NCBI GenBank assembly: GCA_017473015.1
Contig: JAFUNP010000006.1
Span: forward strand, 1 to 57,719
Direction of reading: 5' to 3'
Source: Oscillospiraceae bacterium
Lineage (GTDB): Bacteria; Bacillota; Clostridia; Oscillospirales; Ruminococcaceae
Length of the DNA stretch: 57,719 bases
The first letter of the stretch is position 1. Each line of letters starts with the position of its first letter. The position numbers and the translations under genes were made by a program. Below, one piece after another: positions 6,154 to 32,438 of the stretch. The notes below the pieces were generated by a model. It was not told the DNA's origin. It did no database searches and saw only the letters and a program-made list of their open reading frames with translations.

Positions 6154-6568
6154 GGTGGGTATCGGGAGGAGTGCAACGCACCTCCCGATTTTTTATAAGC
6201 GCGTGACGTTGAGTTGCCGATTTGAAAATGCGCAGCATTTTTTGGAGGCAATAGTGACGCGCACACCTTCTACGCGTTAGGGGACCGGGGCGAATCGCAA
6301 CGCCCCGGGGCTTTGGTACTTTCACCCTGAAAGTACGTAAAACTTCTTTTGAAGTTTTATCTATATAATCGAGGCTGTTAGCGATAAACGGTAACCCTAA
6401 CTTTCCATCACATAATCCACCAATTTCCACCACCCTTCCCCTTTCTTCCCTATATTTTTACAAAATAAACCGAAAATAATGTAATTTTCTCTGTTTTTCT
6501 GCGATATATAAAGGTATATTTTTTATTTTATATATGTTATTGTAAAATCAAAGAAAGGAGTTTTGCCA

Positions 6569-7369
6569 ATGTTCGCCACAGCATTCAGACCACGCCGGGA
6601 AGTAAACACAGTCATGCAGATACCCTTGTCACAGATTGTCCCCTGTCCTTATCAGCCGCGAAAGCTTATAAACCGTCAGGCATTGGAAGACCTGGCAGAA
6701 AATATAAAGGAAAACGGCATACTTCAGCCGCTGACTGCCACCCGACTGTCTGACGGCCGCTACCAGCTGATTGCTGGTCACCGCAGGCTTTTGGCCGCCA
6801 CCAAGGCCGGACTGGAAACCGTGCCTGTCATCCTTCTGGATAAAACCGAAGAAGAAGTGGCGGTGTTGGCGGTAATAGAAAACCTGCAGCGTGAGGATTT
6901 AAACTTTTTTGAACAGGCTATGGCTATACAGTCACTGATGACCAACCTTAATCTTACCCAGGCCGCCGTAGGCCAGAAGCTTTCCCTTTCCCAGCCGGCA
7001 GTAGCCAACAAACTGAAACTGCTGCAGTTTTCCAAAGAACAGCAGATGAAGATACTGGCTTTCAATCTGTCTGAACGCCACGCACGCGCTATTTCCCGTC
7101 TGCCTGCCGAAAAGCAGGACAAAGCCCTGGACTACATAATCCGCAACAATCTGAATGTTTCCGCCACCGACAGATATGTGAACAGCCTGCTGGCCCCAAA
7201 AGAAAAGCACAAGCAGACTGTAAAAGTAAATATAAAGGATATACGCATATTTTCAAACACAATCGCAAAGGCAGTAAAGATAATGCAGACTGCCGGAATA
7301 AACGCAGGCTGTCAGCAGACCGAAGACGACACCGCTATCCGCTGGCAGATAACAGTACCCAAAATATAG
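6569..7369 (+). CDS. noc: ParB-family paralog, Noc-like (nucleoid occlusion protein-like)
   Basis: ParB box region VPCPYQPRK, LIAGHRR, LQREDL and a C-terminal ERHARA...LNVSATDRYV resembling the B. subtilis Noc C-terminus. ATG at 6569 is preferred over the TTG at 6563 (RBS aaggag 6555-6560). Confidence 0.7.
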   Translation: MFATAFRPRREVNTVMQIPLSQIVPCPYQPRKLINRQALEDLAENIKENGILQPLTATRLSDGRYQLIAGHRRLLAATKAGLETVPVILLDKTEEEVAVLAVIENLQREDLNFFEQAMAIQSLMTNLNLTQAAVGQKLSLSQPAVANKLKLLQFSKEQQMKILAFNLSERHARAISRLPAEKQDKALDYIIRNNLNVSATDRYVNSLLAPKEKHKQTVKVNIKDIRIFSNTIAKAVKIMQTAGINAGCQQTEDDTAIRWQITVPKI

Positions 7370-7489: not shown

Positions 7490-7599
7490 AATAAAATCTA
7501 TAAGTCAGATACTCACATCCGCTCTATTCATAAATAGACAAATATAATTAAACTCCCCATATTTATCAATACAGGGAGTTCTCTATTACATTTCTATTA

Positions 7600-8298
7600 T
7601 CACAGCGGTGCTTTATTTATCTTTCCGCCGTTGCGTGGGTATGGTTTTGGTGTTTCTTTTATTTTCTTTGAAACAATCAGACAGCGTTTGCTTTCATCAG
7701 GCAATGTGAAAGTTTCCATATTTTCATATTTGCCGCCCAGCTTTTCAATGGCTTTCAGCGCAGGTGTCAGCTCCTTTTCGCCGTCGCCTTTCATGGCGAT
7801 GAAATGGCCGCCCACCTTTGCCAGCGGGATGCAGTATTCAGACAACACTCTCATATCTGCCACAGCACGGGCAGTTACCACATCAAACTGTTCTCTCCAC
7901 TGTTTTCTGGCTGCTTCCTCCGCTCTTTCCTTTACTACATGGCCATCAAGACCAAGAGTATCCAGAGCATACTGCAGAAATGTGCAGCGTTTGCCTGTTG
8001 GCTCAATAAGAGTCAGGTCAATTTCCGGTTTGTAAATTTTGGTTACAATACCCGGAAAGCCTGCGCCTGTGCCAACATCAGCCACTTTGCCTTTTACCAG
8101 AGAATGCTTTGCAAACAGCAGGCTGTCCAGAAAATGCTTGTTTTCAATGCCCAGTGGGTCAGTAATAGCTGTCAGATTAACCTTTTCGTTGTAATCCACC
8201 AGTATTTCGGCATACTTGTCCAGCTGGTCCAGCTGTTTTTCTGTCAGTTCTATATCATATTCTTTCAGAGTCTGTACAAAACGAATTCTGTCAATCAT
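7600..8298 (-). CDS. rsmG: 16S rRNA (guanine527-N7)-methyltransferase RsmG (GidB)
   Basis: 232 aa with SAM motif DVGTGAGFPG; adjacent to mnmG. Confidence 0.9.
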   Translation of the reverse strand: MIDRIRFVQTLKEYDIELTEKQLDQLDKYAEILVDYNEKVNLTAITDPLGIENKHFLDSLLFAKHSLVKGKVADVGTGAGFPGIVTKIYKPEIDLTLIEPTGKRCTFLQYALDTLGLDGHVVKERAEEAARKQWREQFDVVTARAVADMRVLSEYCIPLAKVGGHFIAMKGDGEKELTPALKAIEKLGGKYENMETFTLPDESKRCLIVSKKIKETPKPYPRNGGKINKAPL

Positions 8299-11025: not shown

Positions 11026-12393
11026 TTATTTACCAACACAGAACTTGGAAAACACCTCATTAACTACTTCGTCGGAAACATTTTCGCCGGTCAAACCATA
11101 CACTGCATATAATGCTTCGTCCACGGCCACGCCGATAATATCCAGGCTGAAACCTTCTTTGAATCGGTCGTTGGCATCTTTTACGGAATTATACGCTGTT
11201 CTTACAGCTTCATATTGTCTTTCGTTTACGATTGCACCGGTGGTTACATCAATATCTGCCACACCCAGCACTTCCATCACATCGTTTTCAAACTCCTTGG
11301 ACATATAAAAATCCTTGGCTGTGATATACAGCACCTTTTTGAAATTGGCTTCCACCTTTGAAACATCAAATTTCTGTTCCAGGTCCTGTTTGTTGATAAT
11401 GGCGACGCTGTTCAGGTCGCGACATCTTTCCGCCAGTTCTATGTCATCAGCTGTGATTTCATTGCTGCCGTCAAACACACAGAACACCAGGTTTGCACCC
11501 TGCAGTCTGTCCAGACTGCGCTGAATGCCCATGGCTTCCACCACATCATCTGTGGCACGGATGCCGGCTGTATCCTGAAGAATCAGGTTCACACCACCCA
11601 GAATAACTTCCTGTTCCACCACATCACGGGTTGTGCCGGCAATAGGTGTAACAATTGCCTTTTCAAAACCGGACAGAGCATTCAGCAATGTGGATTTGCC
11701 CACATTTGGCTTGCCCACAATAGCCGTATTTACACCCTGACGGATTTTCGCGCCGTTGTCGTAACCGTCCATCAGCTTTTTCAGGCTGTTTTCGGCGTTT
11801 GTCAGGATTTCACTTACCTCTTCGTCAGTTACATCCTCCACTGCTTCTTCAGGGTAATCGGTGTAAGCGGAGATATGTCCCACCAGCACCAGCAGGTCGT
11901 CGCGGATTTTTGCCGCTCTTTTGTACAGGTGACCTTCCAGAGCGCTTTTTGCAGCGTTCAGCGCCTGATTTGATGTGGCGTTTATCATTTCCATTACAGC
12001 TTCGGCCTGTGTCAGGCTCATTTTGCCGTTGAGAAATGCCCTTTTGGTGAATTCACCTGCACCTGCAGGCTTTGCACCTGCTTCGTAACAGGCTTTCAGC
12101 AGCTGGTCAGCCACAGCAGAGCCACCGTGACAGCTGATTTCCACCACATTTTCACCGGTGTAGCTGCGTGGTGCGCGGAAAAACAGGGCAACCGCCTGGT
12201 CAACTTCCTCACCTTTTCTATAGAAAGAGCCAAACATGGCTGTGTAGCCCTTGGCATCTTTTACACTTTTATTTTTACTGAAAGGAACAAATACTTTTTC
12301 TGCAATTTCAAAAGCTTCATCGCCTGAAATTCTTATACTGCACAAGCTTGCTTTGCCCGGTGCGGTAGCCATTGCGGCTATACATTCACTCAT
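11026..12393 (-). CDS. mnmE: tRNA modification GTPase MnmE (TrmE/ThdF)
   Basis: 455 aa with G-domain GKPNVGKSTLLN and DTAG motifs, and the C-terminal CVGK typical of MnmE. Confidence 0.95.
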   Translation of the reverse strand: MSECIAAMATAPGKASLCSIRISGDEAFEIAEKVFVPFSKNKSVKDAKGYTAMFGSFYRKGEEVDQAVALFFRAPRSYTGENVVEISCHGGSAVADQLLKACYEAGAKPAGAGEFTKRAFLNGKMSLTQAEAVMEMINATSNQALNAAKSALEGHLYKRAAKIRDDLLVLVGHISAYTDYPEEAVEDVTDEEVSEILTNAENSLKKLMDGYDNGAKIRQGVNTAIVGKPNVGKSTLLNALSGFEKAIVTPIAGTTRDVVEQEVILGGVNLILQDTAGIRATDDVVEAMGIQRSLDRLQGANLVFCVFDGSNEITADDIELAERCRDLNSVAIINKQDLEQKFDVSKVEANFKKVLYITAKDFYMSKEFENDVMEVLGVADIDVTTGAIVNERQYEAVRTAYNSVKDANDRFKEGFSLDIIGVAVDEALYAVYGLTGENVSDEVVNEVFSKFCVGK

Positions 12394-17488: not shown

Positions 17489-18109
17489 CTATTTCAGCAG
17501 TTCGCTTTCCACCCAAGGCTCCAGCTTGTATTTTTCCACAATGCCGTCGCATATTTCTGCCAGCATGGCATCTTCATCAGGGTACATATCTCTTCTCGGT
17601 ACTACCATATATGCAAAGCCACGCAGATTTTTTTCCTTACTGCGTTTCATCACAAAAATGTACAGATGTTTTATAACCTTGATATTTTTTATCAGACTGT
17701 AGTCAAAATATCTTCTCTGTTCATTTGTGAGGAACTCGCATCTGTCCTCGTAAAAGTAAATCATGCCTTTTTCAGGAGTGAAAAACTCATGGGTGTCCTT
17801 ATTGCGCAGAACATGCTGCACAGCCAGATTAAACTCCCTTTTCACACCCCAGAAATAGTTGTAAACAAACAGGAAAAGGAAAATCAGCCATGCGCCCACC
17901 ACAAAAATCATGGTTTCAATCACTATTATCTTTTTTGCTGCCAGTGTCATTACCAGTACAGCAGCCAGTGCCAGCACCACAGATTCTATGATAAAGGTTT
18001 TCACTATGCTTTTTTTCCACAGCTGTGCTTCCAGCTCCTGCTCCAGAATTTCCACCTGGATATAGTCGTCCTGGGAAATATTCACATCAATCTTCAACGG
18101 ATATTCCAT
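17489..18109 (-). CDS. YcxB-like membrane protein (hypothetical) inserted between gyrB and gyrA
   Basis: 206 aa with two central TM helices. The domain organisation resembles YcxB-like, and also the 29893..30402 ORF. Confidence 0.5.
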   Translation of the reverse strand: MEYPLKIDVNISQDDYIQVEILEQELEAQLWKKSIVKTFIIESVVLALAAVLVMTLAAKKIIVIETMIFVVGAWLIFLFLFVYNYFWGVKREFNLAVQHVLRNKDTHEFFTPEKGMIYFYEDRCEFLTNEQRRYFDYSLIKNIKVIKHLYIFVMKRSKEKNLRGFAYMVVPRRDMYPDEDAMLAEICDGIVEKYKLEPWVESELLK

Positions 18110-18118
18110 AACATCACC

Positions 18119-20062
<1,944 letters not shown>

Positions 20063-22362: not shown

Positions 22363-23458
22363 TTTTAAATCTTACCGGCAGTACCAGATAGGTAAAGTCG
22401 TCTCCTTCCTTAGGAATAATTTTACATGGGGCCAGAGGGCCGGAGAATTTAAAAATCAGCTCTTCTTTCTTGCTGGCCTTCAGTGCATCCAGAATATATC
22501 TGTTGTTGAAGCCGATTTCCAGGTCAGGACCTACCTGTCCCACGCTGATTTCGTCATAAACATCGCCCAGCTCTGTAGCGCATTTTACACTGAGAGTATT
22601 TTCTGCAATATTCATCTTCACAGGGTTTCTCAGTCTTTCTGTGATAATCAGTGAAACTCTTTCCACTGCTTCCTGCAGGCTCTTTGTGTTGATAACTGCA
22701 TCTGTCATGTAGTTTGCAGGGATAGCTTTTTTATAATCCAGGAAATCGCCTTCCAGCAATCTGGACAACACAATAAAATCACCTGCTTTAAACATAACAT
22801 ATCTGCGGGATGCAAAAATTGTCAGTTTGCCGTCCTTGTCACCCACAATTCTTCTTACTTCGTTCATGGCCTTTGCCGGTACAATCATGGTAAAATTGCC
22901 GTCAAAATCCACTTCTCTTTCACACACAGCCAGTCTGTAACCGTCCAGAGCAACCATTGTCAGCTGTCTGTCCTCCAGTTTAATCAGCACGCCTGTGTGT
23001 GCAGGTCTTTTTTCATCTGTGGAAACAGCATAAATAACATAGTCACACATTTCTGTAAACAGGCTGTTTTCAATTTTTACGCTGTTGTCCTTGCCTGCAG
23101 ATGGAAAATCAGGATAATCTGTGGAATCAATACCTTTGATGTTGTATTTTGTGATACCGCTTCTGATTACGCAGTTCATTCTTTCGTCGCAATCAATGGA
23201 AATGGTATCATTGTTTACTTTTCTTACAATGTTGCCCAGCAGCTGTGCTGACAGAACCACATCACCTTCTCTTTCCACTTCACATTCAAAAGTGGTTTTG
23301 ATGCCCATTTCAAAATCGTAGCCTGTCAGTGTCAGGCTGTCATTTTCGGCTATCAGCAGAATGCCTTCGATAGCTGCCAGATTGCTCTTTGCAGCCACTG
23401 CCCTTGAAACTATCTGTATAGCTTCATTCAGCTTGTCTCTGTCGCAAACTATTTTCAT
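22355..23458 (-). CDS. dnaN: DNA polymerase III beta sliding clamp
   Basis: 367 aa with three-domain beta-clamp architecture; downstream of dnaA. Confidence 0.9.
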   Translation of the reverse strand: MKIVCDRDKLNEAIQIVSRAVAAKSNLAAIEGILLIAENDSLTLTGYDFEMGIKTTFECEVEREGDVVLSAQLLGNIVRKVNNDTISIDCDERMNCVIRSGITKYNIKGIDSTDYPDFPSAGKDNSVKIENSLFTEMCDYVIYAVSTDEKRPAHTGVLIKLEDRQLTMVALDGYRLAVCEREVDFDGNFTMIVPAKAMNEVRRIVGDKDGKLTIFASRRYVMFKAGDFIVLSRLLEGDFLDYKKAIPANYMTDAVINTKSLQEAVERVSLIITERLRNPVKMNIAENTLSVKCATELGDVYDEISVGQVGPDLEIGFNNRYILDALKASKKEELIFKFSGPLAPCKIIPKEGDDFTYLVLPVRFKND

Positions 23459-23559
23459 ATTTTTATTCCTTTCAGCTTTTTAACAATTTTTTATTATCAG
23501 CTTTTTATTTTTTCTTCTTAATGGGAAAAAAGTTTCCCACTTGCTATATATTTTAAACA

Positions 23560-23935
23560 GCAGTAGTAGTAGGGGCGGTTGAAATGTTGAAACTCTCCCT
23601 AAACCCTTATGAACACTGGAAATTTTCAACATTTTTCACTGTTGAAAATCTGTTTAAAATTTGTTTAAACACTGTTGACAAAATTTTTGCCTGTTGAAAC
23701 TGTTGAAAACTTATTGTTGAATGTTGAAAACTTTGTTGAAAAAATTTTCATCAAATTCTGAATGATTATTCATACAGTTGAATTTAAAATGAATATATAT
23801 TCACTAAAATTACTTTCCACCAATTTTCACCCTGAAAAGACATATGTTTTTCAACATTTTTCAACAATTTGTTTTATTTCAGTTAAAAATTATAAATTTA
23901 TTTCATTTTTCATGTATTTCTGAATAACAGATTTC
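23560..23935. promoter_or_regulatory. oriC: oriC element (dnaA-dnaN intergenic): about 12 DnaA-box-like 9-mers TGTTGAAAA/TTTTCAACA plus an AT-rich unwinding element at 23870-23935
   Basis: Dense direct and inverted copies (gttgaaatgttgaaact, ttttcaacatttttcactgttgaaaatc, ctgttgaaactgttgaaaacttattgttgaatgttgaaaactttgttgaaaaa). The motif matches TGTGGATAA at 7 of 9 positions. The position is canonical for Firmicutes incC. Confidence 0.7.
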
Positions 23936-23974
23936 CAGGTTTTCATCGATATACAGTAATCCCACAAATCAGAG

Positions 23975-24200
23975 TTCTGTCATCCTGAGGAAGACTTTGT
24001 CTGACGAACCCACTACGCTCGCAGGACAGGCTCGCGTTTTTGCCTACGGCAAAACCATTCAGTCGCTACGCTTATCTCCTCTTGCTCTTTCTGCACAAAC
24101 CTGAAAATATGCTGTGTCGGCTTCCGGGCGATTCGTGAATCGCCCCTACGCGTAGAACCTGCGTATACAAGGCTCCCATTCAGGCGACTGAGGGGTTATA
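23975..24200. repeat. Composite repeat block between oriC and the dnaA stop (TGTCATCCTGAG unit, a module shared with 2020-2095 and 26760-26820, REP 24126-24152, gactgaggg module)
   Basis: cactacgctcgcaggacaggctcg...caaaaccattcagtcgctacgc matches 2020-2095 and is the reverse complement of 26768-26820. The REP is identical to the RAYT1 internal copy. Confidence 0.75.
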
Positions 24201-24205
24201 TTCAG

Positions 24206-25510
24206 TTACAGTGTTTTTACATTTTTTATAATATCTTCCACTGTGTCGCGGAAGAAGGAGTTTGTCTTTATTTTCTTGTCCACCTGTTTCAGTGTGTATA
24301 CAACTGTGGAATGGTCGCGTCCGCCGAACTCTTTGCCTATTTCTTCCATGGTCAGACCGCACACTTCCTTCACCACATGCATGGCCATCTGTCTGGCTTC
24401 GCTGATTTCCCGCTTTCTCTTCTGGCTTCTCACATCAGCAGCTGTCACATTGTATACCTTGCATACATCGGTGATTATTTTTTCGATTGTCACCGGTGTG
24501 CTCATCTGTTCGTTGAGAATATCCTTGATTGCGGCCTGGGCATTTGCCATAATCGGCGGTTTGCCCTCCAGCTTCTGCATTGCATCCAGCTTTTTAACCA
24601 CGCCTTCCAGCTGACGGATGTTGGTTTTCACCTTTGAAGCAATAAATTCAATAACTTCAAATTTGATGTCCATACCCAGCAGGTCAGATTTTCTTTTGAT
24701 GATGGCGCATCTTGTTTCAAAATCCGGTGGCCGTATGTCGGCTATCAGACCCCATTCAAACCTGTTTCTCAGCCTGTCTTCCAGACTTTTGATTTCTTTC
24801 GGCGGTCTGTCAGATACCAGTACTATCTGCTTGCCGGCATTGTGCAGTGCGTTGAAAGTGTGGAAAAATTCTTCCTGTGTACTTTCCCTGCCTGCTATAA
24901 ACTGAATATCGTCCACCAGCAGCACATCTGCCTGACGGTATTTGTTTTTAAATTCACTGGTTTTGTTGTCTTTGATTGCTGCGATGATTTCGTTGGTGAA
25001 ATCCTCACCGGACACATACACAATGTTTGCCCCCGGATTATTTTTCAGAATTTCCGCCCTGATAGCATTCAGCAGATGGGTTTTGCCCAGACCGCTGTCC
25101 CCATGTATAAACAACGGGTTGTAGGAATTGGACGGGTTCTGTGCTACAGCCAGCGCTGCCGCATGGGCAAATTTATTGGAAGAACCTACTATGAAAGTAT
25201 CAAAAGTAAAAGCGTATTCGCCGCTGTTTACAGGTTTTACTTCTTCGGCTGCTTCTTCTTCGGTTGGTTTTATGGCTATGTTCAGCAGAACTGTGAAACC
25301 CAGCACATCCTCAAAAGCCTCTGTCAATAACCCTTTGAATCTGTTGTTTACAGTGTCCTGCAGCCATTCGTTGGCCACATACAGTGTCACAGTGTCACCG
25401 TCCATGCTGCCGGCCTCCATCGGGTCCAAAAACAGCTTGTAAGACGCCTGCACCATGCGCTGTGCACAGTAGTCTTTTACAGCTAAAAATACATCATTGA
25501 AAGATTCCAT
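24206..25510 (-). CDS. dnaA: chromosomal replication initiator DnaA
   Basis: 434 aa with AAA+ Walker A GDSGLGKTHLL and a domain IV DNA-binding signature (ARQMAM...FGGRDHSTV). Confidence 0.95.
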   Translation of the reverse strand: MESFNDVFLAVKDYCAQRMVQASYKLFLDPMEAGSMDGDTVTLYVANEWLQDTVNNRFKGLLTEAFEDVLGFTVLLNIAIKPTEEEAAEEVKPVNSGEYAFTFDTFIVGSSNKFAHAAALAVAQNPSNSYNPLFIHGDSGLGKTHLLNAIRAEILKNNPGANIVYVSGEDFTNEIIAAIKDNKTSEFKNKYRQADVLLVDDIQFIAGRESTQEEFFHTFNALHNAGKQIVLVSDRPPKEIKSLEDRLRNRFEWGLIADIRPPDFETRCAIIKRKSDLLGMDIKFEVIEFIASKVKTNIRQLEGVVKKLDAMQKLEGKPPIMANAQAAIKDILNEQMSTPVTIEKIITDVCKVYNVTAADVRSQKRKREISEARQMAMHVVKEVCGLTMEEIGKEFGGRDHSTVVYTLKQVDKKIKTNSFFRDTVEDIIKNVKTL

Positions 25511-25660
25511 TTATACTCTCCTGACTTATTACATTAATAACTAAAATTATACCATATTTAACCCATAAAAACAACATTTTAATATAAGTATAATAATCTA
25601 AATCATAAATATATAAATAAACAATATTTATCTAAAATAACTAACATTTCCCCCATAAAA

Positions 25661-25669
25661 TGTTGAAAA
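25661..25669. promoter_or_regulatory. single DnaA-box-like 9-mer TGTTGAAAA upstream of dnaA
   Basis: This is the only box-like copy in the 950-bp dnaA-rpmH spacer, which is otherwise filled with REPs. Confidence 0.4.
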
Positions 25670-25693
25670 CTGTTCCTTTTTAAAAACTTAAGA

Positions 25694-26240
25694 GTAGGGT
25701 GCGATGCCCACATCGCACCGTTGCCGGTCTGCCGTGGAAGTGAGCGTAGCGAAACGACCATGTGCAGATGCCGAGTTTCGTTATCGAGGCAAGGCAATGC
25801 GATGCCCACATCCCACCACTTATAAAAAGATTTCCTTTGTTTTGTTGTAATTGCGGCCGGTTGATGTCGCTCATAGTATACCGTAGGGGACGGCGTCCTC
25901 GACGTCCCAAGGGCGGATACTGTCCGCCCCTACGCGAGGCAGCGCACAAATCAGAGTATTGTCATCCTGAGCAAGCGTAGCGCGTCGACGCCTGCCGCAG
26001 CAGGTGTGCAGAGCCGCAACCGAACGAAAGTGAGGCTCTTGGCGGCGAGCAAGGATCTTTGCCGCTACAAGCGGCAACGGGATGTCCAGAGGCCATCCCC
26101 TACGCGAAATGCAAAAGCCTCCCATGTGCAATGGCCCAGGCCAGCTTCTCTTGCCCTTTGGGCAATTCACCGTCGGGGTGGTGGCCGAGTGTAACGCGGC
26201 CGGAGGGGTTGTTTATTCAAATCTCCGCGGGACGGGGAGC
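25694..26240. repeat. Large REP/BIME-like cluster upstream of dnaA (bracketed GCGATGCCCACATCGCACC hairpins, two GTAGGGG REPs at 25881-25936, TGTCATCCTGAG unit 25955-26075, REP 26078-26106)
   Basis: At least six GC-rich hairpins with GTAG(G) heads. The hairpin GGGACGGCGTCCTCGACGTCCC equals 6124-6153. Confidence 0.8.
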
Positions 26241-26462
26241 CTGTATTGGCTTGCTCGCCTTCTCCTGTATTTTCCGTCATTTCCACTATTTTTCTGTTTT
26301 AAAATATAATATTTTACCCAAATTCACCTTTTTTTGCACTTGACAATTTACCTTCTTTTATTATATACTTTTATCTTGCAAGGTTATGACCTTGACAGAT
26401 ACAGTCGGCAGCGGATTTTCCGTTTGCATATATAAAAATAATAAGACAGGAGGACAAAAACA

Positions 26463-26597
26463 ATGAAAAGAACTTATCAGCCAAAGAAAAGAACTCGCGC
26501 AAGAGTACACGGCTTTCTGAACAGAATGGCTACAAAAAACGGCAGAAAAGTAATCGCTAAAAGAAGATCAAAAGGCAGAGCTAAACTCGCAGTTTAA
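26463..26597 (+). CDS. rpmH: 50S ribosomal protein L34
   Basis: Translation [44 protein letters not shown] (44 aa), the canonical L34. Absent from the ORF track because it is under 60 aa. Confidence 0.9.
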
Positions 26598-26741
26598 TTC
26601 TCACAGCCTTTGTTTGTTCTCTTATTTCTGAAAATAAACTTAGCAAGGCCACCTCGCGTGGTCTTTGTTTCTATTTACAGATTTTTTATCTGTATAAAGA
26701 ATAAAAGATGAAATATTCAATGCTTTTATTTACTTTAAAAG

Positions 26742-26850
26742 GCTCCCTTGTGTAAAGTCGGCGTAGCCGAATGAATGGTTTTGCCGCAGGCAAAAACGTG
26801 AGCTTGTCCTGCGAGCGTAGTGAAGCTGTCAGCAAAGCTGACTGAGGGAT
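26742..26850. repeat. Composite repeat (ctcccttgtgtaaag head, a module that is the reverse complement of 24008-24075, gctgactgaggg tail) between rpmH and rnpA
   Basis: Shares modules with 1775-1825, 36512-36700 and 57672-57719. Confidence 0.7.
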
Positions 26851-26926
26851 TGTAAAGTAAAAATCATTTTTTCAGAAAAAGAGACAACAGATTTTCCCAA
26901 ACCTTTCATTGAAAGAAAGGAAAAAG

Positions 26927-27295
26927 ATGAAGTTCAAATCTATCAACCAGAACACACAGTTTATCAGGGCCTACCGCAAAGGGGCTTCTTATGTTACCCC
27001 TCTGCTGGTTACTTATGTTATCAAAAACCGCTGGGGCCATGTCCGTATAGGCATCACCTCCAGCAAAAAAATAGGCGGCGCGGTGCAGCGCAACAGAGCG
27101 CGTCGTGTTATCCGCGCTGCAGTGCGTGCTTTGAACCTGGATATGAACCAGGGCTATGACATTATCTTTGTGGCGCGCAGCAAAACAACCCGCTGCAAAT
27201 CATGGCAGCTGGAACCCCTGATAAAACAACGGCTTACAGATGCGGGAGTTATAAATGCTGAAAAAATTACTGATATTTCCAATCAGGCTTTATAA
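26927..27295 (+). CDS. rnpA: ribonuclease P protein component
   Basis: Basic protein with the RNR motif region ([11 protein letters not shown]). Start at the second Met, with a purine-rich RBS. Confidence 0.85.
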
Positions 27296-27500
27296 AAAAT
27301 TCATCTCTCCCCTTTTGGGCCATCATTGCCGCTACTGGCCTACCTGCAGCAGTTATATGATACAGGCTATCGAAATTCACGGCGCCGCCAAAGGTCTGCT
27401 TCTTGGCACATGGCGCATACTGCGCTGCAACCCCTGGTCAAAGGGCGGTTACGACCCTGTCCCGCCGAAAGGTATGTGGACAAATATTAAACAGCCGTAA
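27255..27500 (+). CDS. yidD: membrane protein insertion efficiency factor YidD
   Basis: 81 aa; conserved YWPTCS...RCNPW...GGYDPVP. Confidence 0.8.
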
Positions 27501-27526
27501 GAAATTTACGGCCCGGAGGAAAATTT

Positions 27527-28552
27527 ATGGAATTAATTGCAACCCCACTTGGCTGGCTGATGCGCCGGATTTATAATTTTGTGGGCAACTATGGTGTGAC
27601 ACTTATCCTTTTCACACTGGTTACAAAAATCATCCTTATGCCTCTGACTGTAAAGCAGAAAAAATCCATGATACGCATGAATGCTTTCCAGCCAGAAATT
27701 CAGAGAATTCAGAAAAAATACGCTACAGACACACAGAAACAGCAGGAAGAGCTGACACGCCTGCAGACAGAACACAATTTCTCCATGACAAGCGGCTGTC
27801 TGCCTATGCTTATCCAGATGCCTATCCTGTTCGGTCTGATTGACGTTATCTACAAACCTCTGCGCCATATCGTAGGTGTAAACAAAAATCTGATTGCTGA
27901 CACACTTACACCAATGGCGGAAAAAATGCTGGGCACTCTTTCCAGATACAGCCCACAGACAGATATTATCAAAGCAATCAAACAGGCTCCAGAAGCTTTC
28001 GCAGATGTACTGGATGCAGCTACAATCACTACAGTTCAGGAAATGGACCTGACTTTCCTGGGCATGGACCTTTCCGCTACACCAAGCCTGAAAGTGTTCA
28101 ACTCCCTGCTGCTTATCCCTGTGCTGTCTGTTATATTCATGCTGCTGCAGCAGTATCTCACACAGAAACTCAACGGTCAGCAGTCCAACGGCCAGACAAC
28201 AGCTATGCTGGGCATGACTACACTGATGTTCGGCTATTTTGCATTTATGATGCCTGCAGGTGTTTCTATCTACTGGATTTTCTCCAGCGTATTCGGCATC
28301 CTTCAGGAACTGGTACTGCGCATCTTTATTGACCCTGAAAAAGAAAAAGCAAAAATCGAAGAAGAAATTTACGAAGCACGCAAAGCAAGAAAAGAAAAAG
28401 AAAAACAGCGCCCTGCAAAAGTAGCCAAGGCTAAAGAAAAAGCCAAGGACAAATATGTGGCAGATGTTTACGAATCAGAAGAAGAAGCTGAAAGAGTAAG
28501 AAAACGTCTGGAAAAAGCAAGAGCACTGGATAAAGAAAAATACGGTGATTAA
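27527..28552 (+). CDS. yidC: membrane protein insertase YidC/SpoIIIJ (Oxa1 family)
   Basis: 341 aa with five-TM core and a C-terminal basic tail; position after rnpA/yidD. Confidence 0.9.
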   Translation: MELIATPLGWLMRRIYNFVGNYGVTLILFTLVTKIILMPLTVKQKKSMIRMNAFQPEIQRIQKKYATDTQKQQEELTRLQTEHNFSMTSGCLPMLIQMPILFGLIDVIYKPLRHIVGVNKNLIADTLTPMAEKMLGTLSRYSPQTDIIKAIKQAPEAFADVLDAATITTVQEMDLTFLGMDLSATPSLKVFNSLLLIPVLSVIFMLLQQYLTQKLNGQQSNGQTTAMLGMTTLMFGYFAFMMPAGVSIYWIFSSVFGILQELVLRIFIDPEKEKAKIEEEIYEARKARKEKEKQRPAKVAKAKEKAKDKYVADVYESEEEAERVRKRLEKARALDKEKYGD

Positions 28553-28556
28553 TACA

Positions 28557-29588
28557 ATGAGAGAAGTAATTAAAACAGCTGCTACAGTTGAAGAAGCTGT
28601 ACAGCTTGGCGCGCAGGAACTGGGCCTCTCCGTTGACAGTGTATCATACGAAGTTCTCCAGATGCCTGAAAAGAAATTCTTCCTTTTCAAAAGCAAACCT
28701 GCCCAGGTTCGCATTTACGAAAAAGAAGAAGATTTTGATGTAAAATCCCTCTTTGGCAAAGAAGAAGCCAAAGAAGTGAAAAAAGAAGAAAAAGCTGCTC
28801 CTAAAGCTAAAAAGGAACAGCCAAAAGAAGAAAGAAAACCACAGCCTAAACAGGAAAAGAAAGAAAACAAAAAATCTGCTCCTAAACAGGAAAAACCGGC
28901 TAAAGAAGCTGTAAAAGAAGTGGTTAAAGAAGAAATCAAAGCTGAAGCAAAACCTGTGGAAACAGCTGTTTCTGTGGAAGAACTGAGCGACAAAGCAAAA
29001 TACGCCATGGAATTTCTGGAAAGTATTATCGGCCAGTTCCACAAAGGCAACTATACACTGACACCGGTGAAAACTGAAACAGGTTATGTTATCAAAATCA
29101 GCGGTGACGATGTAGGCGCACTGATTGGCCGCAAAGGCGAAACAATGGAAGCCCTGTCCTATCTGACAGGCCTGGCTGCAAACCGCTCCGACGACAGCTT
29201 TGAAAAAATCAGCGTAGATGTGGCTGACTACCGTCAGAAACGCGAAAAAGACCTGGTGGCTTCCGCCAAAAAAGCAGCAGCAAAAGTGCTGAAAACAGGC
29301 CGTCCGTTCGGTTTTGAACCAATGAACCCTTACGACCGCCGCATCATCCACGCAGCTATCGGTCAGATTGACGGTGTAAAGAGCGAATCCAAAGGCGAAG
29401 GCGCCAGCCGTCGTGTAATGGTTTACTCCACTAACCCAAAACCACGCTACGACAAAAACAAAGGCGGCAAAAAGCCTTACAACAAGTCAAACCGCAGAGA
29501 AAAACCAGCTCCACAGGCACAGAAAACACGCACTGAAAAGCTGGTGGACGAATCAAGCTTCGGCCTCTACTCCAAAATTGACCTGTAA
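28557..29588 (+). CDS. jag: RNA-binding protein Jag/KhpB (Jag_N, KH, R3H) with a long Lys/Glu-rich linker
   Basis: N-terminal Jag_N (VEEAVQLGAQELG); C-terminal R3H (RRIIHAAI...G). ATG at 28557 is preferred (RBS ggtga); an alternative GTG lies at 28545. Confidence 0.8.
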   Translation: MREVIKTAATVEEAVQLGAQELGLSVDSVSYEVLQMPEKKFFLFKSKPAQVRIYEKEEDFDVKSLFGKEEAKEVKKEEKAAPKAKKEQPKEERKPQPKQEKKENKKSAPKQEKPAKEAVKEVVKEEIKAEAKPVETAVSVEELSDKAKYAMEFLESIIGQFHKGNYTLTPVKTETGYVIKISGDDVGALIGRKGETMEALSYLTGLAANRSDDSFEKISVDVADYRQKREKDLVASAKKAAAKVLKTGRPFGFEPMNPYDRRIIHAAIGQIDGVKSESKGEGASRRVMVYSTNPKPRYDKNKGGKKPYNKSNRREKPAPQAQKTRTEKLVDESSFGLYSKIDL

Positions 29589-29600
29589 TCGCAGATAATA

Positions 29601-29630
29601 AAAGGACACCACCCGGTGTCCTTTTTATTT
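29601..29630 (+). terminator. intrinsic terminator after jag
   Basis: Hairpin ggacaccacccggtgtcc followed by a T-run. Confidence 0.7.
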
Positions 29631-29694
29631 TCTCCGTATTGTTTCAGCTTTTAAATCAGATTATTTAACAAATACAGAAATACAAATATAAAAT

Positions 29695-29758
29695 CAGTGT
29701 CGTTCTGAGCGCAGCGAAGAATCTCCGCCCAAATGACAGAACAGATATAAATGATATG
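29695..29758. repeat. About 65-bp repeat unit TGTCRTTCTGAGNNNNNCGAAGAATCTCC...AATGACAG...AATGAYA (copy 1 of 3)
   Basis: Closely similar copies at 37388-37455 and 45628-45695. Confidence 0.8.
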
Positions 29759-29892
29759 CCCAAAGCACTTTACGAAGCAAAATTTATTTCATATCCCGGC
29801 GCTTACCAACACTTAAAAATTATTTTCCTCTTTAACTTCCCTGTCCGTTGTGATAAAATATCTTATAAATAAATTTGTAAAGGACATAATTA

Positions 29893-30402
29893 ATGACCTC
29901 ATATATATCAAAAACTGAAATAACTCTGGAAAAATATATGGAAATAAGCAACAGGCCTCTGGGCAAAAAGGCCCGTGCTGACCTGAACCGCTGGAAAATC
30001 ACAAAAATTGCCGGAATCGCAGTTTCTGCTGCTATCGCAGGATTGGCCCTTAATTCCGGCATGGGCGAATTTTCACTTATCAGCGGAGTGTTTGGTCTGG
30101 TGATGGCTTATCAGTTGTTTTTCCAGCGAAAAAACCTTATAAAGAAGAAATATGCCGAAACAGTTGACCTGCTGCCGGATAAAAAATGGGTGCGCACCAT
30201 CACATTTGATGATAAAATCACTGTGGCCGACGGCAACAATTCCTCTGTTTTCGCCTACTCCGATTACAAATGGGCATCCGAAAACGAGGGTTATTTCCTG
30301 CTGTACCGCAATGAAAACATAGTTCTCCGTGTGGAAAAAGGCAGCTTCACCTACGGTAATGAAAAAGACTTCCTCCGCTGGATTAGCAATAAATTAAAAT
30401 AG
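29893..30402 (+). CDS. YcxB-like membrane protein (hypothetical)
   Basis: 169 aa with two central TM helices and a PH-like C-terminal region. Paralog-like relative of the gene between gyrB and gyrA. Confidence 0.5.
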   Translation: MTSYISKTEITLEKYMEISNRPLGKKARADLNRWKITKIAGIAVSAAIAGLALNSGMGEFSLISGVFGLVMAYQLFFQRKNLIKKKYAETVDLLPDKKWVRTITFDDKITVADGNNSSVFAYSDYKWASENEGYFLLYRNENIVLRVEKGSFTYGNEKDFLRWISNKLK

Positions 30403-30452
30403 TATTGATGCATAAGGGCGGCAATCTGCCGCCCGATTAATAAAATTTTTAC

Positions 30453-30528
30453 GCTTGTGTGGCTCAGCTGGCAGAGCAGCTCACTCGTAATGAGCAGGTC
30501 GTGAGTTCGAATCTCATCACAAGCTCCA
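30453..30528 (+). tRNA. tRNA-Thr (anticodon CGU)
   Basis: Manual cloverleaf: acceptor gcttgtg/cacaagc, D-arm gctc...gagc, anticodon stem gctca/tgagc with loop cuCGUaa, T-arm gtgag-ttcgaat-ctcat, encoded CCA. Followed by a terminator hairpin acccggtt..accgggt and a T-run. Confidence 0.85.
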
Positions 30529-30539
30529 CCCTACCCGGT

Positions 30540-31110
30540 TTTACACCGGGTATTTTTTTATTCCATAACTTTTCAACTTTTTAAACATTTTTAAACTTTT
30601 AGATGTTGAAATGAGAAAATAATACATAACTATATAATACATAATTTCACACTTTGGCACAAAATTGACCACCGGTTTTACTATTTGTAAAGTTTTAAAC
30701 AAAGTTTTCAACACCATGTTGAAAACTAAAATTAAATAAAAATGCTTATTTTTGGGCAAAAACACTGATTTTGGTAAAAAATGGCAGTTGAAAATTTTTT
30801 CGCCGTTTTACTATCTGTAATTTTCCACAGTTTTTAACATTTTCAACAGAGTTTTCAACATTTTCTCAGTTTTCAACGAAAAAATTAAGTTTTTATCATT
30901 AAATTGTTGAAAACTCTGTTGAATTCGTGGAAAACTATACCCAAAAACTACATTTTCAACTGGAAATCCGGTCCGTAATCCAATATTTTGGCAAAAATAT
31001 GTGGAAAACATTCTATATATAGTGTAAAATAAAAATCAGATTAAAAGTTAAGGGGATGTTAAAAACTGTGGAAAAATTGCTATTTTCTCAACAAATTTAC
31101 CATTTTGGCG
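30540..31110. promoter_or_regulatory. Second DnaA-box-like cluster (about 16 copies of TGTTGAAAA/TGTGGAAAA in both orientations) downstream of jag/tRNA-Thr
   Basis: Examples: ttttcaacagagttttcaacattttctcagttttcaacg, ttgttgaaaactctgttgaattcgtggaaaact, tatgtggaaaac, ctgtggaaaaa. Positionally analogous to the B. subtilis jag-thdF DnaA-box cluster. Extends into the first 50 nt of the queG ORF. Confidence 0.6.
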
Positions 31111-31856
31111 TCGTAAGTTTTCAACATTTAAACATTCTGAATGTCCGTTCAAAATCCAGAATTCCACCGGATTGTACCGCAGCAATCGCCATAATTTTTC
31201 CTTATTACAACAAAAATGCCTTTATGGGAAACATCAGTGCATATTGCAGTGTCCCGGACTATCACATTGTGGTTATGGAACAACTAAAATCCATATGTGA
31301 GAAACTGTCGGAAAAATATCCCGGTCACAGCTTTGTCCCTTTTGTAGACTCCTCTCCCGTAGATGAAGTGGACATGGCGGTGAAGGCCGGTCTGGGCGTA
31401 AAGGGGGACAATGGTCTGCTGATTACCCCCACTTTCGGCTCCTATGTGTTTATAGGTGAAATCCTCACCACCCTGCCCCTTGCCTCCACCTGTCATGCTG
31501 ACCGCGGCTGTCTGCACTGTGGTCGCTGTGCCACTGCCTGCCCCGGCGGTGCCATAGCAGAGGGCCGTGTTAATACAGAAACCTGTGCCAGCCATATCAG
31601 CCAGAAAAAAGGTGAACTGACAGAAAAAGAAACTGATATTCTCTCCCGTGCCCACACCGTTTTCGGCTGTGATATATGCCAGACTGTCTGCCCAATGAAC
31701 AGAAATGTAAAAGAAACCGAAAACCTGTTTTCACAGGATATTATTTCAACAATCACCACGGAAAATGTGGAAAGTCTGTACAAAAACCGTCCTTTCGGCT
31801 GGCGTGGACTACCGGTTCTGAAAAGAAACCTGGAAATTTATTATAACGGCAGATAA
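31056..31856 (+). CDS. queG: epoxyqueuosine reductase QueG (short form)
   Basis: DUF1730-like N-terminus (VPDYHIVV, FVDSSPV...AGLGVKGDNGLLITP.GSYVFIGEILT) followed by two 4Fe-4S motifs CLHCGRCATACPGGAI and FGCDICQTVCPMN, the QueG signature. Start uncertain (internal Met at 31224). Confidence 0.7.
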   Translation: MLKTVEKLLFSQQIYHFGVVSFQHLNILNVRSKSRIPPDCTAAIAIIFPYYNKNAFMGNISAYCSVPDYHIVVMEQLKSICEKLSEKYPGHSFVPFVDSSPVDEVDMAVKAGLGVKGDNGLLITPTFGSYVFIGEILTTLPLASTCHADRGCLHCGRCATACPGGAIAEGRVNTETCASHISQKKGELTEKETDILSRAHTVFGCDICQTVCPMNRNVKETENLFSQDIISTITTENVESLYKNRPFGWRGLPVLKRNLEIYYNGR

Positions 31857-31916: not shown

Positions 31917-32438
31917 TTATTTCAATGTCTGCCATCTGGCGCTGATTTCCCACACAGCTTCGCCTGCGGCCAGTGACCGTGGCACATTTATCACACGCTG
32001 GTTGCTGCTGCCTTTGAAACCGCCGGACAGTGTGCGCTGGGCTAGCACAAAAGGTCCGTCCACCAGTATGTCACACAGCTCCAGCAGTCGGTATTCATCG
32101 CTTGAGCTGTCTTTTGTCAGCTGTTCGTATGTAAAACCGGAATATACCGCTATTTCATATCCGTCGGCTTTCAGCAGCTTTGCCAGCTCATAAAATCCAT
32201 TCCGCTGGCAGAACGGTTCACCGCCGGAAAAGGTGACCCCGCGCACCAGAGGGTCTTTTTTAATCATTTTGTAAATATCCTCCACATCGTATTTTTCACC
32301 GATGCCGAAAGGATGGGTTTCCGGGTTGTGGCAGCCGGGACAGTTGTGTATACACCCCTGGCAGAACACTGCAAATCTCAGCCCCGGTCCGTCTGTAATA
32401 CTGTTTGGTGCAAAGCCTGAAATATCTATAACAGCCAT
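31917..32438 (-). CDS. nrdG: anaerobic ribonucleoside-triphosphate reductase activating protein (radical SAM)
   Basis: 173 aa; FCQGCIHNCPGCHNP cysteine cluster typical of NrdG-type activases. No nrdD in the window. Confidence 0.7.
   Translation of the reverse strand: MAVIDISGFAPNSITDGPGLRFAVFCQGCIHNCPGCHNPETHPFGIGEKYDVEDIYKMIKKDPLVRGVTFSGGEPFCQRNGFYELAKLLKADGYEIAVYSGFTYEQLTKDSSSDEYRLLELCDILVDGPFVLAQRTLSGGFKGSSNQRVINVPRSLAAGEAVWEISARWQTLK

Follow-up and report, generated by a model that had tools for sequence, protein, structure and literature searches.

The segment 30570-31126, which lies upstream of a QueG-like gene and extends into it, is probably a conserved DnaA-box cluster outside the origin that serves as the 5' control region of this gene, with DnaA repressing queG and being buffered there. 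The segment is enriched in a nine-base motif identical to that of the origin, its architecture and its linkage to queG are conserved, it overlaps the predicted queG promoter, and synonymous sites are constrained at the box which lies within queG codons; from these observations we infer DnaA binding at the cluster, repression of queG and titration of DnaA. Positions refer to the window, i.e., the whole stretch of 57,719 nucleotides that was analysed, and the features are collected in Table 1. The source organism is an uncultured MAG.

Table 1. Features of the origin spacer, the box cluster and the neighbouring genes (window positions).
Feature	Position	Strand	Remarks
AT-rich stretch	23459-23557		Between DnaA-trio and dnaN start
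DnaA-trio CAGCAGTAGTAGTAG and GC cluster GGGGCGG	23558-23578	+	dnaA-dnaN spacer; trio itself at 23558-23572
Origin box cluster	23585-23866		Same 9-mer, 7 copies exact and 7 with one mismatch
tRNA-Thr(CGT)	30453-30528	+	ARAGORN; Rfam tRNA 67 bits; variable left neighbour, outside the conserved element
Intrinsic terminator of the tRNA	30532-30562	+	Terminator scan; 8-bp stem and T run
Distal group	30570-30612		30570(-) AGTTGAAAA, 30579(-) TGTTTAAAA, 30604(+) TGTTGAAAT; left edge of conserved element
Palindrome 1, TTTAC-N5-GTAA	30677-30690		Not a DnaA box
Box triad	30693-30725		Starts 30693, 30705, 30717; TTTTAAACA and TTTTCAACA codirectional, TGTTGAAAA opposite; 3-bp gaps
Solitary box AGTTGAAAA	30786-30794	+	GGTTGAAAA in relatives; G-T-K-GAAAA invariant in alignment A1
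Palindrome 2, TTTAC-N5-GTAA	30807-30820		130 bp from palindrome 1; directly upstream of box array
Leftward five-box array	30821-30878	-	Starts 30821, 30831, 30840, 30852, 30870; spacing 10, 9, 12, 18 bp
Rightward array facing leftward array	30905-30934	+	TGTTGAAAA, TGTTGAATT, CGTGGAAAA; spacing 10-11 bp
Box AGTTGAAAA	30953-30961	-	Box scan
Predicted queG promoter	31000-31030	+	-35 TGGAAA 31002-31007, 17-bp spacer, -10 TAAAAT 31025-31030
QueG-like gene	31056-31856	+	Pfam DUF1730 and 4Fe-4S dicluster (Fer4_16); 266-aa ORF
Boxes over translation start	31057-31093		31057(+) TGTTAAAAA, 31067(+) TGTGGAAAA, 31085(-) TGTTGAGAA
Box TTTTCAACA in queG codons (S-F-Q-H)	31118-31126	-	Right edge of element

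Box motif and architecture of the cluster

The motif TGTKGAAAA, or TTTTCMACA on the opposite strand, occurs 26 times in the whole window against 2.6 expected, with 7 exact copies in the dnaA-dnaN spacer (23623-23866) and 9 in 30705-31126. When one mismatch is allowed, 30570-31126 holds 20 sites (9 exact and 11 one-mismatch) on both strands, several of them in tandem with a start-to-start spacing of 9-12 bp, and the density is 33 per kb (20 sites in 560 bp) in comparison to about 1.7 per kb for the background. Dinucleotide-preserving shuffles (n=1000) of 30529-31130 itself, which has 27% GC, gave a mean of 0.11 and a maximum of 2 exact sites in comparison to the 9 observed, and a mean of 2.2 and a maximum of 8 sites with at most one mismatch in comparison to the 20 observed, so the cluster is not explained by AT-richness. 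The account in the preliminary description of about 16 copies, in both orientations and some in tandem, running into the 5' end of queG, was correct, with the sites at 31057, 31067, 31085 and 31118 lying in or at the start of the open reading frame.

Judged by its sequence and context, the motif very probably represents this clade's DnaA box. The same 9-mer is common to the cluster and the dnaA-dnaN spacer, where it lies against the DnaA-trio, oriented as DnaA boxes would be, and this supports both earlier proposals, that the motif is the DnaA box of the host organism and that a second DnaA-box cluster lies near the origin. Under the criterion TTWTNCACA with one mismatch tolerated (PMC7561715), TTTTCCACA matches exactly and TTTTCAACA matches with one mismatch; the latter is the commonest box and deviates from the classical consensus at C6, a position important in E. 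coli. In this DnaA, E, S and Y stand where the E. coli protein has P423, T435 and H439, and these clade-wide changes would fit an altered box specificity. Across metagenome lineages the correlation of DnaA recognition residues with box type was mixed, lineages with canonical residues also having the convergent pair GTTTTCMACA-N3-TGTKGAAAAC adjoining dnaA, and as support for altered specificity this correlation is weak. Among 82 metagenome matches to the convergent pair, 31 adjoin dnaA, dnaN, rpmH, recF or gyrB, in lineages whose DnaA is only 23-51% identical.

Alternatively, the boxes could mainly serve another regulator, such as a Spo0A-like protein, that recognises origin sites as well, in which case the cluster would be a complex queG promoter. 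The TGTTGAA of the cluster is similar to TGTCGAA, the Spo0A 0A-box, DnaA boxes in the origin of B. subtilis are overlapped by 0A-boxes, TGTCGAAA variants are found in locus L006, and additional conserved palindromes are present. We consider this explanation quite improbable, however, given that the 9-mer which abuts the DnaA-trio also adjoins dnaA in far-apart lineages and is within one mismatch of the DnaA consensus, and that an arrangement of about 20 sites repeating every 9-12 bp is characteristic of DnaA oligomers rather than of a dimeric regulator.

The architecture was followed through nine genome loci, a seven-species alignment (A1) and six further contexts found via QueG homologues. 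Relative to the queG-like start, the boxes keep their order, orientation and spacing in about 20 related uncultured Oscillospiraceae, box by box across species whose Jag is 46% to 78% identical to that of the window, and the boxes stand out as islands of conservation in A1. At the left edge, TGTTGAAAT followed by GAGAAAATAATACA is invariant in A1. Palindrome 1, a possible target of an accessory dimeric factor, is conserved directly upstream of the box triad, even in L026 and L030, which are distant relatives. The triad, which includes a palindrome with 11-bp arms (AGTTTTCAACA-N3-TGTTGAAAACT), is the most conserved core; the window has it and so, with the outlier L032 excepted, does each of the 15 related queG-upstream regions that were drawn. 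A1 shows little or no variation at the columns TTAACATTTTCMACAGAGTTTTCAACA of the leftward array, and in the rightward array TGTTGAATT has two mismatches in the window, with TGTTGAAAA at the same place in relatives.

Other explanations of the region as a coding or RNA feature were set aside. The minus-strand ORFs at 30541-30765 and 30811-31011 were treated as chance ORFs in AT-rich DNA because conservation tracks the boxes and not the reading frame. An Rfam scan of 23300-31400 returned the tRNA only and no known RNA that explains the region, the matches to mir-9261 and MicX being far below the gathering scores and arising from the box palindromes.

The origin, the neighbourhood and the QueG-like gene

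The dnaA-dnaN spacer is the unwinding origin. It holds the trio, the AT-rich stretch and boxes of its own; the trio is conserved, as a (TAG)3-5 run, in 21 of 22 genomes (the window and 21 related loci), and upstream of dnaA there is a single exact box, at 25661. A search of 30529-31130 for a DnaA-trio or unwinding element of its own found none, and the number of boxes in the cluster was greater than that in the origin spacer in every genome compared. The cumulative GC skew, which the preliminary description had suggested following across 25-31 kb, falls steeply to about 26 kb and then stays flat without an upturn, while the AT skew changes sign at 25-26 kb; the pattern points to the dnaA/rpmH divergence, although it is confounded by coding strand and 25 and 31 kb are not separable by it.

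The identities of Jag, YidC, RnpA, DnaA and DnaN were confirmed by Pfam, and that of the tRNA-Thr to the left of the cluster by ARAGORN. The tRNA is missing from L003 and L004 and lies on the other strand in L002, with same-strand copies in other relatives, and its terminator is predicted to shield the cluster from read-through. The cluster lies 5.5 kb from dnaA and about 1 kb downstream of jag in the window, and the earlier statement that it is beside jag does not hold, as jag ends at 29588 and the tRNA and a 169-aa ORF without family match (29893-30402) intervene. The mnmE-mnmG-rsmG-noc-parAB genes are located beyond gyrA as described, in the form of an mnmE-mnmG-rsmG-noc-like-parA-parB block left of gyrA, with mnmE (11026-12393) on the other side of the origin.

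The QueG-like protein probably has 262 aa, read from the GTG at 31068, and the database copy P0001 (262 aa) also begins at GTG. The box at 31067 overlaps this conserved start, which falls in a GTG/TTG/ATG column in relatives. The TIGR00276 (QueG) score was 156.8 bits in comparison to the curated cut-off of 200 bits, covering model positions 82-252 of 337, and the name QueG-like is therefore used; 1215 homologues were found. The gene forms a monocistronic unit and is followed by NrdG (31917-32438), which is convergent to it.

A box lies over the core promoter predicted by the consensus scan, as in DnaA-repressed promoters: the predicted -35 hexamer sits inside the box TGTGGAAAA at 31000-31008. 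The promoter columns GTGGAAAA and ATATAGTGTAAAATA are invariant in A1, and the promoter spacer holds a palindrome, ACACAATATATAGTGT in relatives and a degenerate ATTCTATATATAGTGT at 31010-31025 in the window. Compared with the NrdR consensus, this NrdR-box-like palindrome matches fully in L001 and L002 and with one mismatch in L003, L004, L006, L007 and L012; its assignment as an NrdR box was set aside, the window copy being degenerate and not above chance and no second box at the proper spacing having been seen. Further downstream, the box within the queG codons (GTTTTCAACATTTAAACAT) is identical in 13 of 16 species, and identity at third codon positions is 0.83 there in comparison to 0.58 for the whole gene, the highest value in the gene, demonstrating constraint on synonymous sites.

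Linkage of the cluster in related genomes

The distance from jag to queG ranges from about 2 to 9 kb with different genes between, and in the closer relatives of the window the cluster lies 6-13 kb from the origin. In L026-L031 and L035 queG and the cluster are found elsewhere, with no dnaA or jag within 10 kb. An alternative context of this kind places them between an Mrp-like gene and rpe/rnf genes. The Mrp-like gene is not an obligatory partner, being absent from the window and from L001-L025. The MAG GCA_017505635.1 carries queG with the cluster (L026) and dnaA-jag (L025) on different contigs, and contig geometry places the cluster at least about 32 kb from jag. In L034, where jag is 6 kb downstream of queG on the opposite strand, the cluster has the inverse orientation to jag. 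Its tie to queG is strong and not absolute, since L006 has a rearranged cluster without an adjoining queG and L032, a distant QueG homologue, is without the cluster.

These results bear directly on the earlier proposal that the cluster is the equivalent of the B. subtilis jag-thdF (mnmE) cluster retained at a synteny breakpoint, i.e., an orthologue left beside jag as mnmE-mnmG-rsmG-noc-parAB moved. A DnaA-bound cluster does exist between jag and thdF in B. subtilis, and the positions of jag and of the mnmE block in the window agree with such a history. The synteny comparison nevertheless contradicts it, as the cluster keeps its register with queG and not with jag, occurs away from jag or inverted relative to it as described above, and has no counterpart at mnmE: no exact box was found between the adjacent jag and mnmE of the metagenome lineages L048, L051 and L100, and upstream of mnmE in the window there are no boxes. 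The jag-thdF cluster of B. subtilis forms the thdF promoter, and even among Bacillus species it is reportedly not conserved (PMC2533591). Orthology with it is thus hardly credible.

The same linkage data were used to weigh a displaced oriC1, under which the cluster would be the box-rich half of a bipartite origin that loops to the dnaA-dnaN half from 5.5 kb away. Origins in clostridia have two parts, of which the one between rpmH and dnaA holds 9-19 boxes, and in C. difficile both halves are needed for unwinding in vitro (PMC7561715). The dnaA-rpmH spacer has 0-5 boxes in the window and most relatives in comparison to 8-21 in the queG cluster, and the 6-13 kb from the origin in closer relatives would also suit a displaced half. 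However, the cluster does not flank dnaA, it is on another contig than jag in at least one MAG and inverted relative to jag in L034, it reaches into a coding region and promoter without a trio, and L004 has both a cluster upstream of dnaA and a queG cluster. The second origin half suggested earlier is unlikely because the trio and AT-rich stretch are confined to the dnaA-dnaN spacer and linkage to the origin is inconstant, and we regard a displaced oriC1 as very improbable.

Length differences between lineages step by about 11 bp, the gap between the facing arrays being 54 or 65 bp and another interval 188-189, 200, 210 or 223 bp, while the promoter-proximal 210-213 bp are constant between lineages. 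A Rayleigh test for helical phasing was set aside because the approximation gave negative p-values and the sequences are non-independent, and the steps are thus taken qualitatively only.

Such spacing would also suit a DARS- or datA-like element, in which DnaA on oppositely oriented boxes and a bending factor on TTTAC-N5-GTAA do more than hold DnaA and change its nucleotide state, through release of ADP or hydrolysis of ATP. Indel steps of about 11 bp preserve helical phase, the conserved core consists of three boxes, two one way and one opposite, with 3-bp gaps, and conserved non-box palindromes flank the arrays like the IHF and Fis sites in datA and DARS2. Against this, there are about 20 boxes here rather than 3-5, opposed arrays are also found in ordinary origins and in B. 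subtilis clusters, and we know of no DARS or datA system in Firmicutes. The resemblance is one of geometry (compared on box number, direction and gap), with a gap of 3 bp in comparison to the 5 bp in the DARS core, in which boxes I and II of three are opposite (PMC6868365), and a DARS- or datA-like element is an unlikely explanation.

A broader possibility, to which we give a small chance, is that the clade has lost the classical origin half upstream of dnaA and that its role was taken over by a mobile, gene-embedded DnaA platform at queG. This would influence the dnaA-dnaN origin from a distance or else, in the manner of DARS or datA, reset DnaA's nucleotide state by means of a factor on the TTTAC-N5-GTAA palindromes. 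If this were true, it would be the first such element outside Proteobacteria, with initiation coupled to a tRNA-modification-type gene.

Proposed role and comparison with known systems

For the explanation which we prefer, an extra-origin DnaA-box cluster that controls queG, the following mechanism is proposed. DnaA would nucleate on the exact TTTTCMACA boxes, and oligomers would then spread along the tandem 9-12 bp arrays that face each other, with the triad, the five leftward boxes and the three rightward boxes as assembly units. The complex would reach over the -35 hexamer, the start codon and queG codons 17-20, so that queG transcription would drop at high DnaA occupancy. With about 20 sites, more than in the origin spacer, the locus could hold a sizeable share of cellular DnaA and would thereby buffer the free initiator, like the B. 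subtilis DnaA-box clusters, and an accessory factor would probably bind both conserved palindromes. The earlier suggestion of a DnaA sink or regulator is thus plausible from the sequence, although a titration role tied to origin proximity is weakened by the inconstant distance to oriC. Among the papers searched, none connected queG or epoxyqueuosine reductase to DnaA boxes, and TTTTCAACA together with DnaA appeared only in two unrelated ones.

Work on a few model species has established that extra-origin DnaA-box clusters tune initiation and turn DnaA into a transcription factor. A locus tied to one QueG-family Fe-S gene wherever it is placed, in uncultured gut and rumen Oscillospiraceae, thus offers a natural test bed for how DnaA oligomer geometry (opposed arrays, indel steps of about 11 bp) relates to function, for datA- or DARS-like control in Firmicutes, and for specificity, from the variant TTTTCAACA and the DnaA changes at the three E. 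coli positions. It is also a warning for origin-prediction tools, in that the densest box cluster near dnaA may lie outside the origin.

In comparison to DnaA-repressed promoters (dnaA autoregulation, B. subtilis ywlC and yydA, and P. aeruginosa gidAB-parAB at oriCII), the queG region likewise has a box over the predicted core promoter, and the gene it would target is akin to a tRNA-modification enzyme near the origin, a trait shared with thdF-gidA of B. subtilis and gidA of P. aeruginosa; it differs in a box number far above the needs of repression and in a QueG assignment below the curated cut-off. Like the oriC1 between rpmH and dnaA in B. subtilis and C. difficile, the cluster is box-rich without its own trio or unwinding element and similar in box number (9-19), but it does not adjoin dnaA, is inconstantly linked to the dnaA-dnaN half, and overlaps a promoter and coding region. 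In E. coli DARS1, DARS2 and datA the direction and spacing of the boxes determine function, and DARS2 and datA also require accessory DNA-bending proteins. The queG cluster shares with them the location of boxes outside the origin, and its triad, with two boxes one way and one opposite, looks similar to the DARS core, whereas it has many more boxes, a 3-bp instead of a 5-bp gap, and belongs to another phylum.

The closest comparison is with the B. subtilis DnaA-box clusters, which regulate adjoining genes and jointly hold back initiation, the deletion of all six leading to early initiation (PMC3245932, PMC2533591). In both cases DnaA boxes of the organism's own type are densely packed into a promoter or intergenic stretch that is separate from the unwinding origin, in many cases near it. 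The queG cluster differs in its QueG-like neighbour, with no positional homology to any of the six, in its larger size (about 20 boxes in 560 bp, more than the origin spacer), in entering the coding sequence by about 60 bp, and in relocating with its gene away from oriC, and it is best read as a functional analogue, not an orthologue, of the B. subtilis clusters.

Repeat enrichment and identity of the motif

The 9-mer TGTKGAAAA (reverse complement TTTTCMACA) occurs 26 times in the window, one entire contig (57,719 bp) of an uncultured Oscillospiraceae MAG, in comparison to 2.6 copies expected, with seven exact copies in the dnaA-dnaN spacer and nine within 30705-31126. With up to one mismatch allowed, 20 sites were found in 30570-31126 in comparison to about 1.7 per kb elsewhere in the window, and 1000 shuffles of the cluster region itself (27% GC) gave a mean of 0.11 exact (maximum 2) and 2.2 near-exact copies (maximum 8). 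This mapping bears out what a preliminary description had reported on copy number, the two orientations, tandem copies and the reach into the 5' end of queG.

Four lines of evidence argue that the 9-mer is a DnaA box. It also fills the dnaA-dnaN spacer, the canonical unwinding origin of Firmicutes, where next to the boxes lie a GC cluster and the textbook DnaA-trio CAGCAGTAGTAGTAG (23558-23572), and from there AT-rich sequence extends to the dnaN start; a (TAG)3-5 run was present in this spacer in 21 of 22 genomes (the window and 21 related loci). Measured against the relaxed consensus TTWTNCACA, the form TTTTCCACA is an exact fit and TTTTCAACA has one mismatch, the criterion applied to clostridial origins being at most one mismatch (PMC7561715). 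When metagenomes were scanned for the convergent pair GTTTTCMACA-N3-TGTKGAAAAC, at least 82 matches in at least 80 loci came up, and among the matches listed 31 of 82 lay within about 2.5 kb of dnaA, dnaN, rpmH, recF or gyrB, in lineages whose DnaA is only 23-51% identical to that of the window. Binding by a regulator other than DnaA is a poor fit for the boxes that adjoin the trio at the origin and for the pair's association with dnaA in many lineages. An exact box upstream of dnaA (25661) is as expected for dnaA autoregulation. Among the matches listed, the pair was also observed in the recF-gyrB interval, at 150-420 bp from the 5' end of gyrB (L042, L054, L055, L071, L073, L079, L091, L095 and L102, all metagenome loci), and may represent a recurrent DnaA-regulated gyrB promoter.

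Six residues of E. coli DnaA make base-specific contacts, R399, P423, D433, H434, T435 and H439 (PMC2533591), and domain IV was compared between the window (24206-24514) and the related loci L002-L025. Nearly all clade members retain R399, D433 and H434 (L006 and L015 differ), and the equivalents of P423, T435 and H439 are E/A/K, S/A and Y in the window and most relatives. The changed residues coincide with heavy use of TTTTCAACA in place of TTATCCACA, and the three changed contacts would fit a shifted box preference; across other lineages the correlation was mixed, lineages with canonical residues also having the pair near dnaA.

Architecture of the cluster and its linkage to queG

Features of the cluster and its gene neighbourhood in the window
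Feature	Position	Strand	Remark
serS, parB, IS200-like gene, parA, noc-like gene (+), rsmG, mnmG, mnmE			left block, in order
gyrA, gyrB, recF, dnaN, dnaA		mostly -	next block, in order
rpmH, rnpA, yidD, yidC, jag, 169-aa ORF, tRNA-Thr(CGT)		+	plus-strand block
169-aa ORF	29893-30402		between jag and tRNA-Thr
tRNA-Thr(CGT)	30453-30528	+	own terminator, then repeat cluster
Distal box group	30570-30612
Palindrome TTTAC-N5-GTAA, first copy	30677-30690
Box triad	30693-30725		two in same direction, one opposite; 3-bp gaps
Solitary box	30786
Palindrome TTTAC-N5-GTAA, second copy	30807-30820
Five leftward boxes	30821-30878		spacing 10, 9, 12, 18 bp
Three rightward boxes	30905-30934		facing leftward array
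Single box	30953
Box with predicted -35 inside	31000-31008		TGGAAA
Predicted -10	31025-31030		TAAAAT
Box across start codon	31067		conserved GTG
Box within queG	31118-31126		codons S-F-Q-H
QueG-like gene	31056/31068-31856	+	5' end overlapped by cluster
NrdG gene	31917-32438		convergent with QueG-like gene

The gene 3' of the cluster scored 156.8 bits in comparison to the curated QueG cut-off of 200, and 'QueG-like' is therefore the safe name. In nine related genome loci (the related loci are all from Oscillospiraceae MAGs), a cluster with the same box order, orientation and spacing lies directly 5' of the queG-like gene and overlaps its start, and in a seven-species alignment the boxes stand as conserved islands amid otherwise diverged sequence. 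Thirteen of 16 species share the box inside queG, GTTTTCAACATTTAAACAT, unchanged, with a third-codon-position identity of 0.83, the gene maximum, in comparison to the gene mean of 0.58. Distances within the cluster change between lineages in steps of about 11 bp (separation of the opposed arrays, 54 or 65 bp; triad to rightward array, 188-189, 200, 210 or 223 bp), and the promoter-proximal 210-213 bp are constant; such steps, one box unit or helical turn, are what selection acting on a DnaA lattice would be expected to leave.

Across those nine loci jag and queG are about 2 to 9 kb apart, with different intervening genes, and the tRNA may lie on one strand or the other or be missing. Contigs were further traced for QueG homologues of 51-64% identity. 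In L026-L031 and L035 the queG-like gene is flanked by a divergent Mrp-like ATPase gene on one side and rpe/rnf genes on the other, with neither dnaA nor jag within 10 kb; L026 and L025 are separate contigs of one MAG, which by contig geometry places the L026 queG no less than about 32 kb from jag. Downstream of queG in L034, jag is found at 6 kb on the opposite strand. The roughly 560 bp upstream of queG have the same architecture in all of these (L026-L031, L034 and L035). The conserved register and the queG-linked contexts away from jag and dnaA thus argue that the element belongs to queG and is tied neither to jag nor to a fixed origin distance. There are two exceptions: L032 (a 50%-identical homologue) has no cluster, and L006 has a rearranged one (17690-18470; promoter palindrome at left, arrays in other order) with no queG beside it and a degenerate minus-strand tRNA-Thr remnant at about 18420-18470.

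The earlier reading of the cluster as the B. subtilis jag-thdF equivalent, kept beside jag, consequently fails on synteny, because the cluster moves with queG in register with its start while jag distance and context vary, and three lineages with adjacent jag and mnmE have no exact boxes between them. It fails on the literature too, because the B. subtilis cluster forms the promoter of thdF and lacks conservation across Bacillus species (PMC2533591).

The box count of the queG cluster exceeded that of the origin spacer in every genome where both were countable. The dnaA-rpmH spacer, which holds 9-19 boxes in clostridial origins (PMC7561715), is almost empty in these genomes (0-5), and this emptiness makes a displaced oriC1 attractive; that reading is contradicted by linkage and orientation that vary, by the gene overlap, and by the presence in L004 of both dnaA-upstream and queG clusters, and a second origin half is unlikely. 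The resemblance to DARS or datA is geometric only: the conserved triad looks like the three-box core of DARS, in which boxes I and II point in opposite directions (PMC6868365), and an accessory factor could bind at the conserved palindromes that are not boxes. We consider it improbable that the cluster serves the origin as a distant module or is a Firmicute counterpart of datA/DARS.

Neighbouring and related elements

The queG promoter spacer contains a 16-bp palindrome, ACACAATATATAGTGT, that adjoins the -10; the copies in L001 (9744) and L002 (13357) are perfect, those in L003 (5524), L004 (17316), L006 (17783), L007 (13934) and L012 (17028) have one mismatch, and the window copy (31010-31025) is degenerate. 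The palindrome matches what we take to be the NrdR-box consensus, the convergent neighbour being the NrdG gene; no second box at the proper spacing was seen. L014 has a small four-box cluster (11478-11569) right after jag, before a 59-aa Cys-rich ORF, and L004 has five exact boxes in its dnaA-rpmH spacer (7593-7916).

The 169-aa ORF had no match in Pfam or NCBIfam and a 40%-identical copy in L002 only. An IS200-like Y1 transposase gene (4641-5192) splits parA (5196-5960) from parB (3552-4409), and a second ParB-family (noc-like) gene lies on the opposite strand (6563-7369). GC skew right of the origin (26000-57719) is never positive, at about -0.03 to -0.1 across 20 kb, and genes there are of mixed orientation in comparison to uniformly minus-strand genes on the left, which suggests right-replichore rearrangements or weak skew in this genome. 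GC-rich repeats, which look like MITE- or REP-like insertions, flank dnaA on either side and also occur between rpmH and rnpA (23940-24200, 25690-26240, 26750-26860): 23963-23993 and 25945-25975 are 90% identical, 24011-24065 and 26768-26822 are 93% identical and inverted, and 25700-25719 recurs at 25798-25817. They enlarge the origin spacers to 750 and 952 bp in comparison to about 300-450 and 330 bp in relatives.

In L043, from a high-GC human-gut organism, a DnaA-box cluster (4650-5000) lies outside oriC between two ORFs whose opening residues suggest a SpoU/TrmH-type methyltransferase in one and a penicillin-binding protein in the other; at least 15 metagenome loci are near-identical (L041, L047, L052, L062, L064, L072, L075, L080, L086, L087, L096, L097, L104, L109 and L113). 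It shares the tandem triple of the rightward array, TGTTGAAAAC-CC-TGTTGAAAG-CG-TGGAAAAC, and has a TACAAACCGTA element, and may thus be a related module in a different gene context.

Proposed mechanism and comparison with B. subtilis

Enrichment, conservation, gene linkage and overlap with the predicted promoter are directly observed at the cluster; DnaA binding, queG repression and DnaA titration are what we infer. DnaA would nucleate on the exact boxes and oligomerise along the opposed arrays, and the complex would extend across the -35 hexamer and the start codon into the early queG coding region, so that queG is proposed to be repressed at high occupancy; the roughly 20 sites could also sequester substantial DnaA. 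Among the papers searched, none ties queG to DnaA boxes.

At the sequence level the locus has the hallmarks of a B. subtilis-type DnaA-box cluster and of a DnaA-repressed promoter, and may work like both. We rate it as a probable DnaA-box cluster of known type, unusual in size and conservation. The B. subtilis clusters outside oriC, described with the same DnaA-binding, repression and sequestration roles as proposed for the queG cluster, control neighbouring genes, and deletion of all six leads to early initiation (PMC2533591, PMC3245932).
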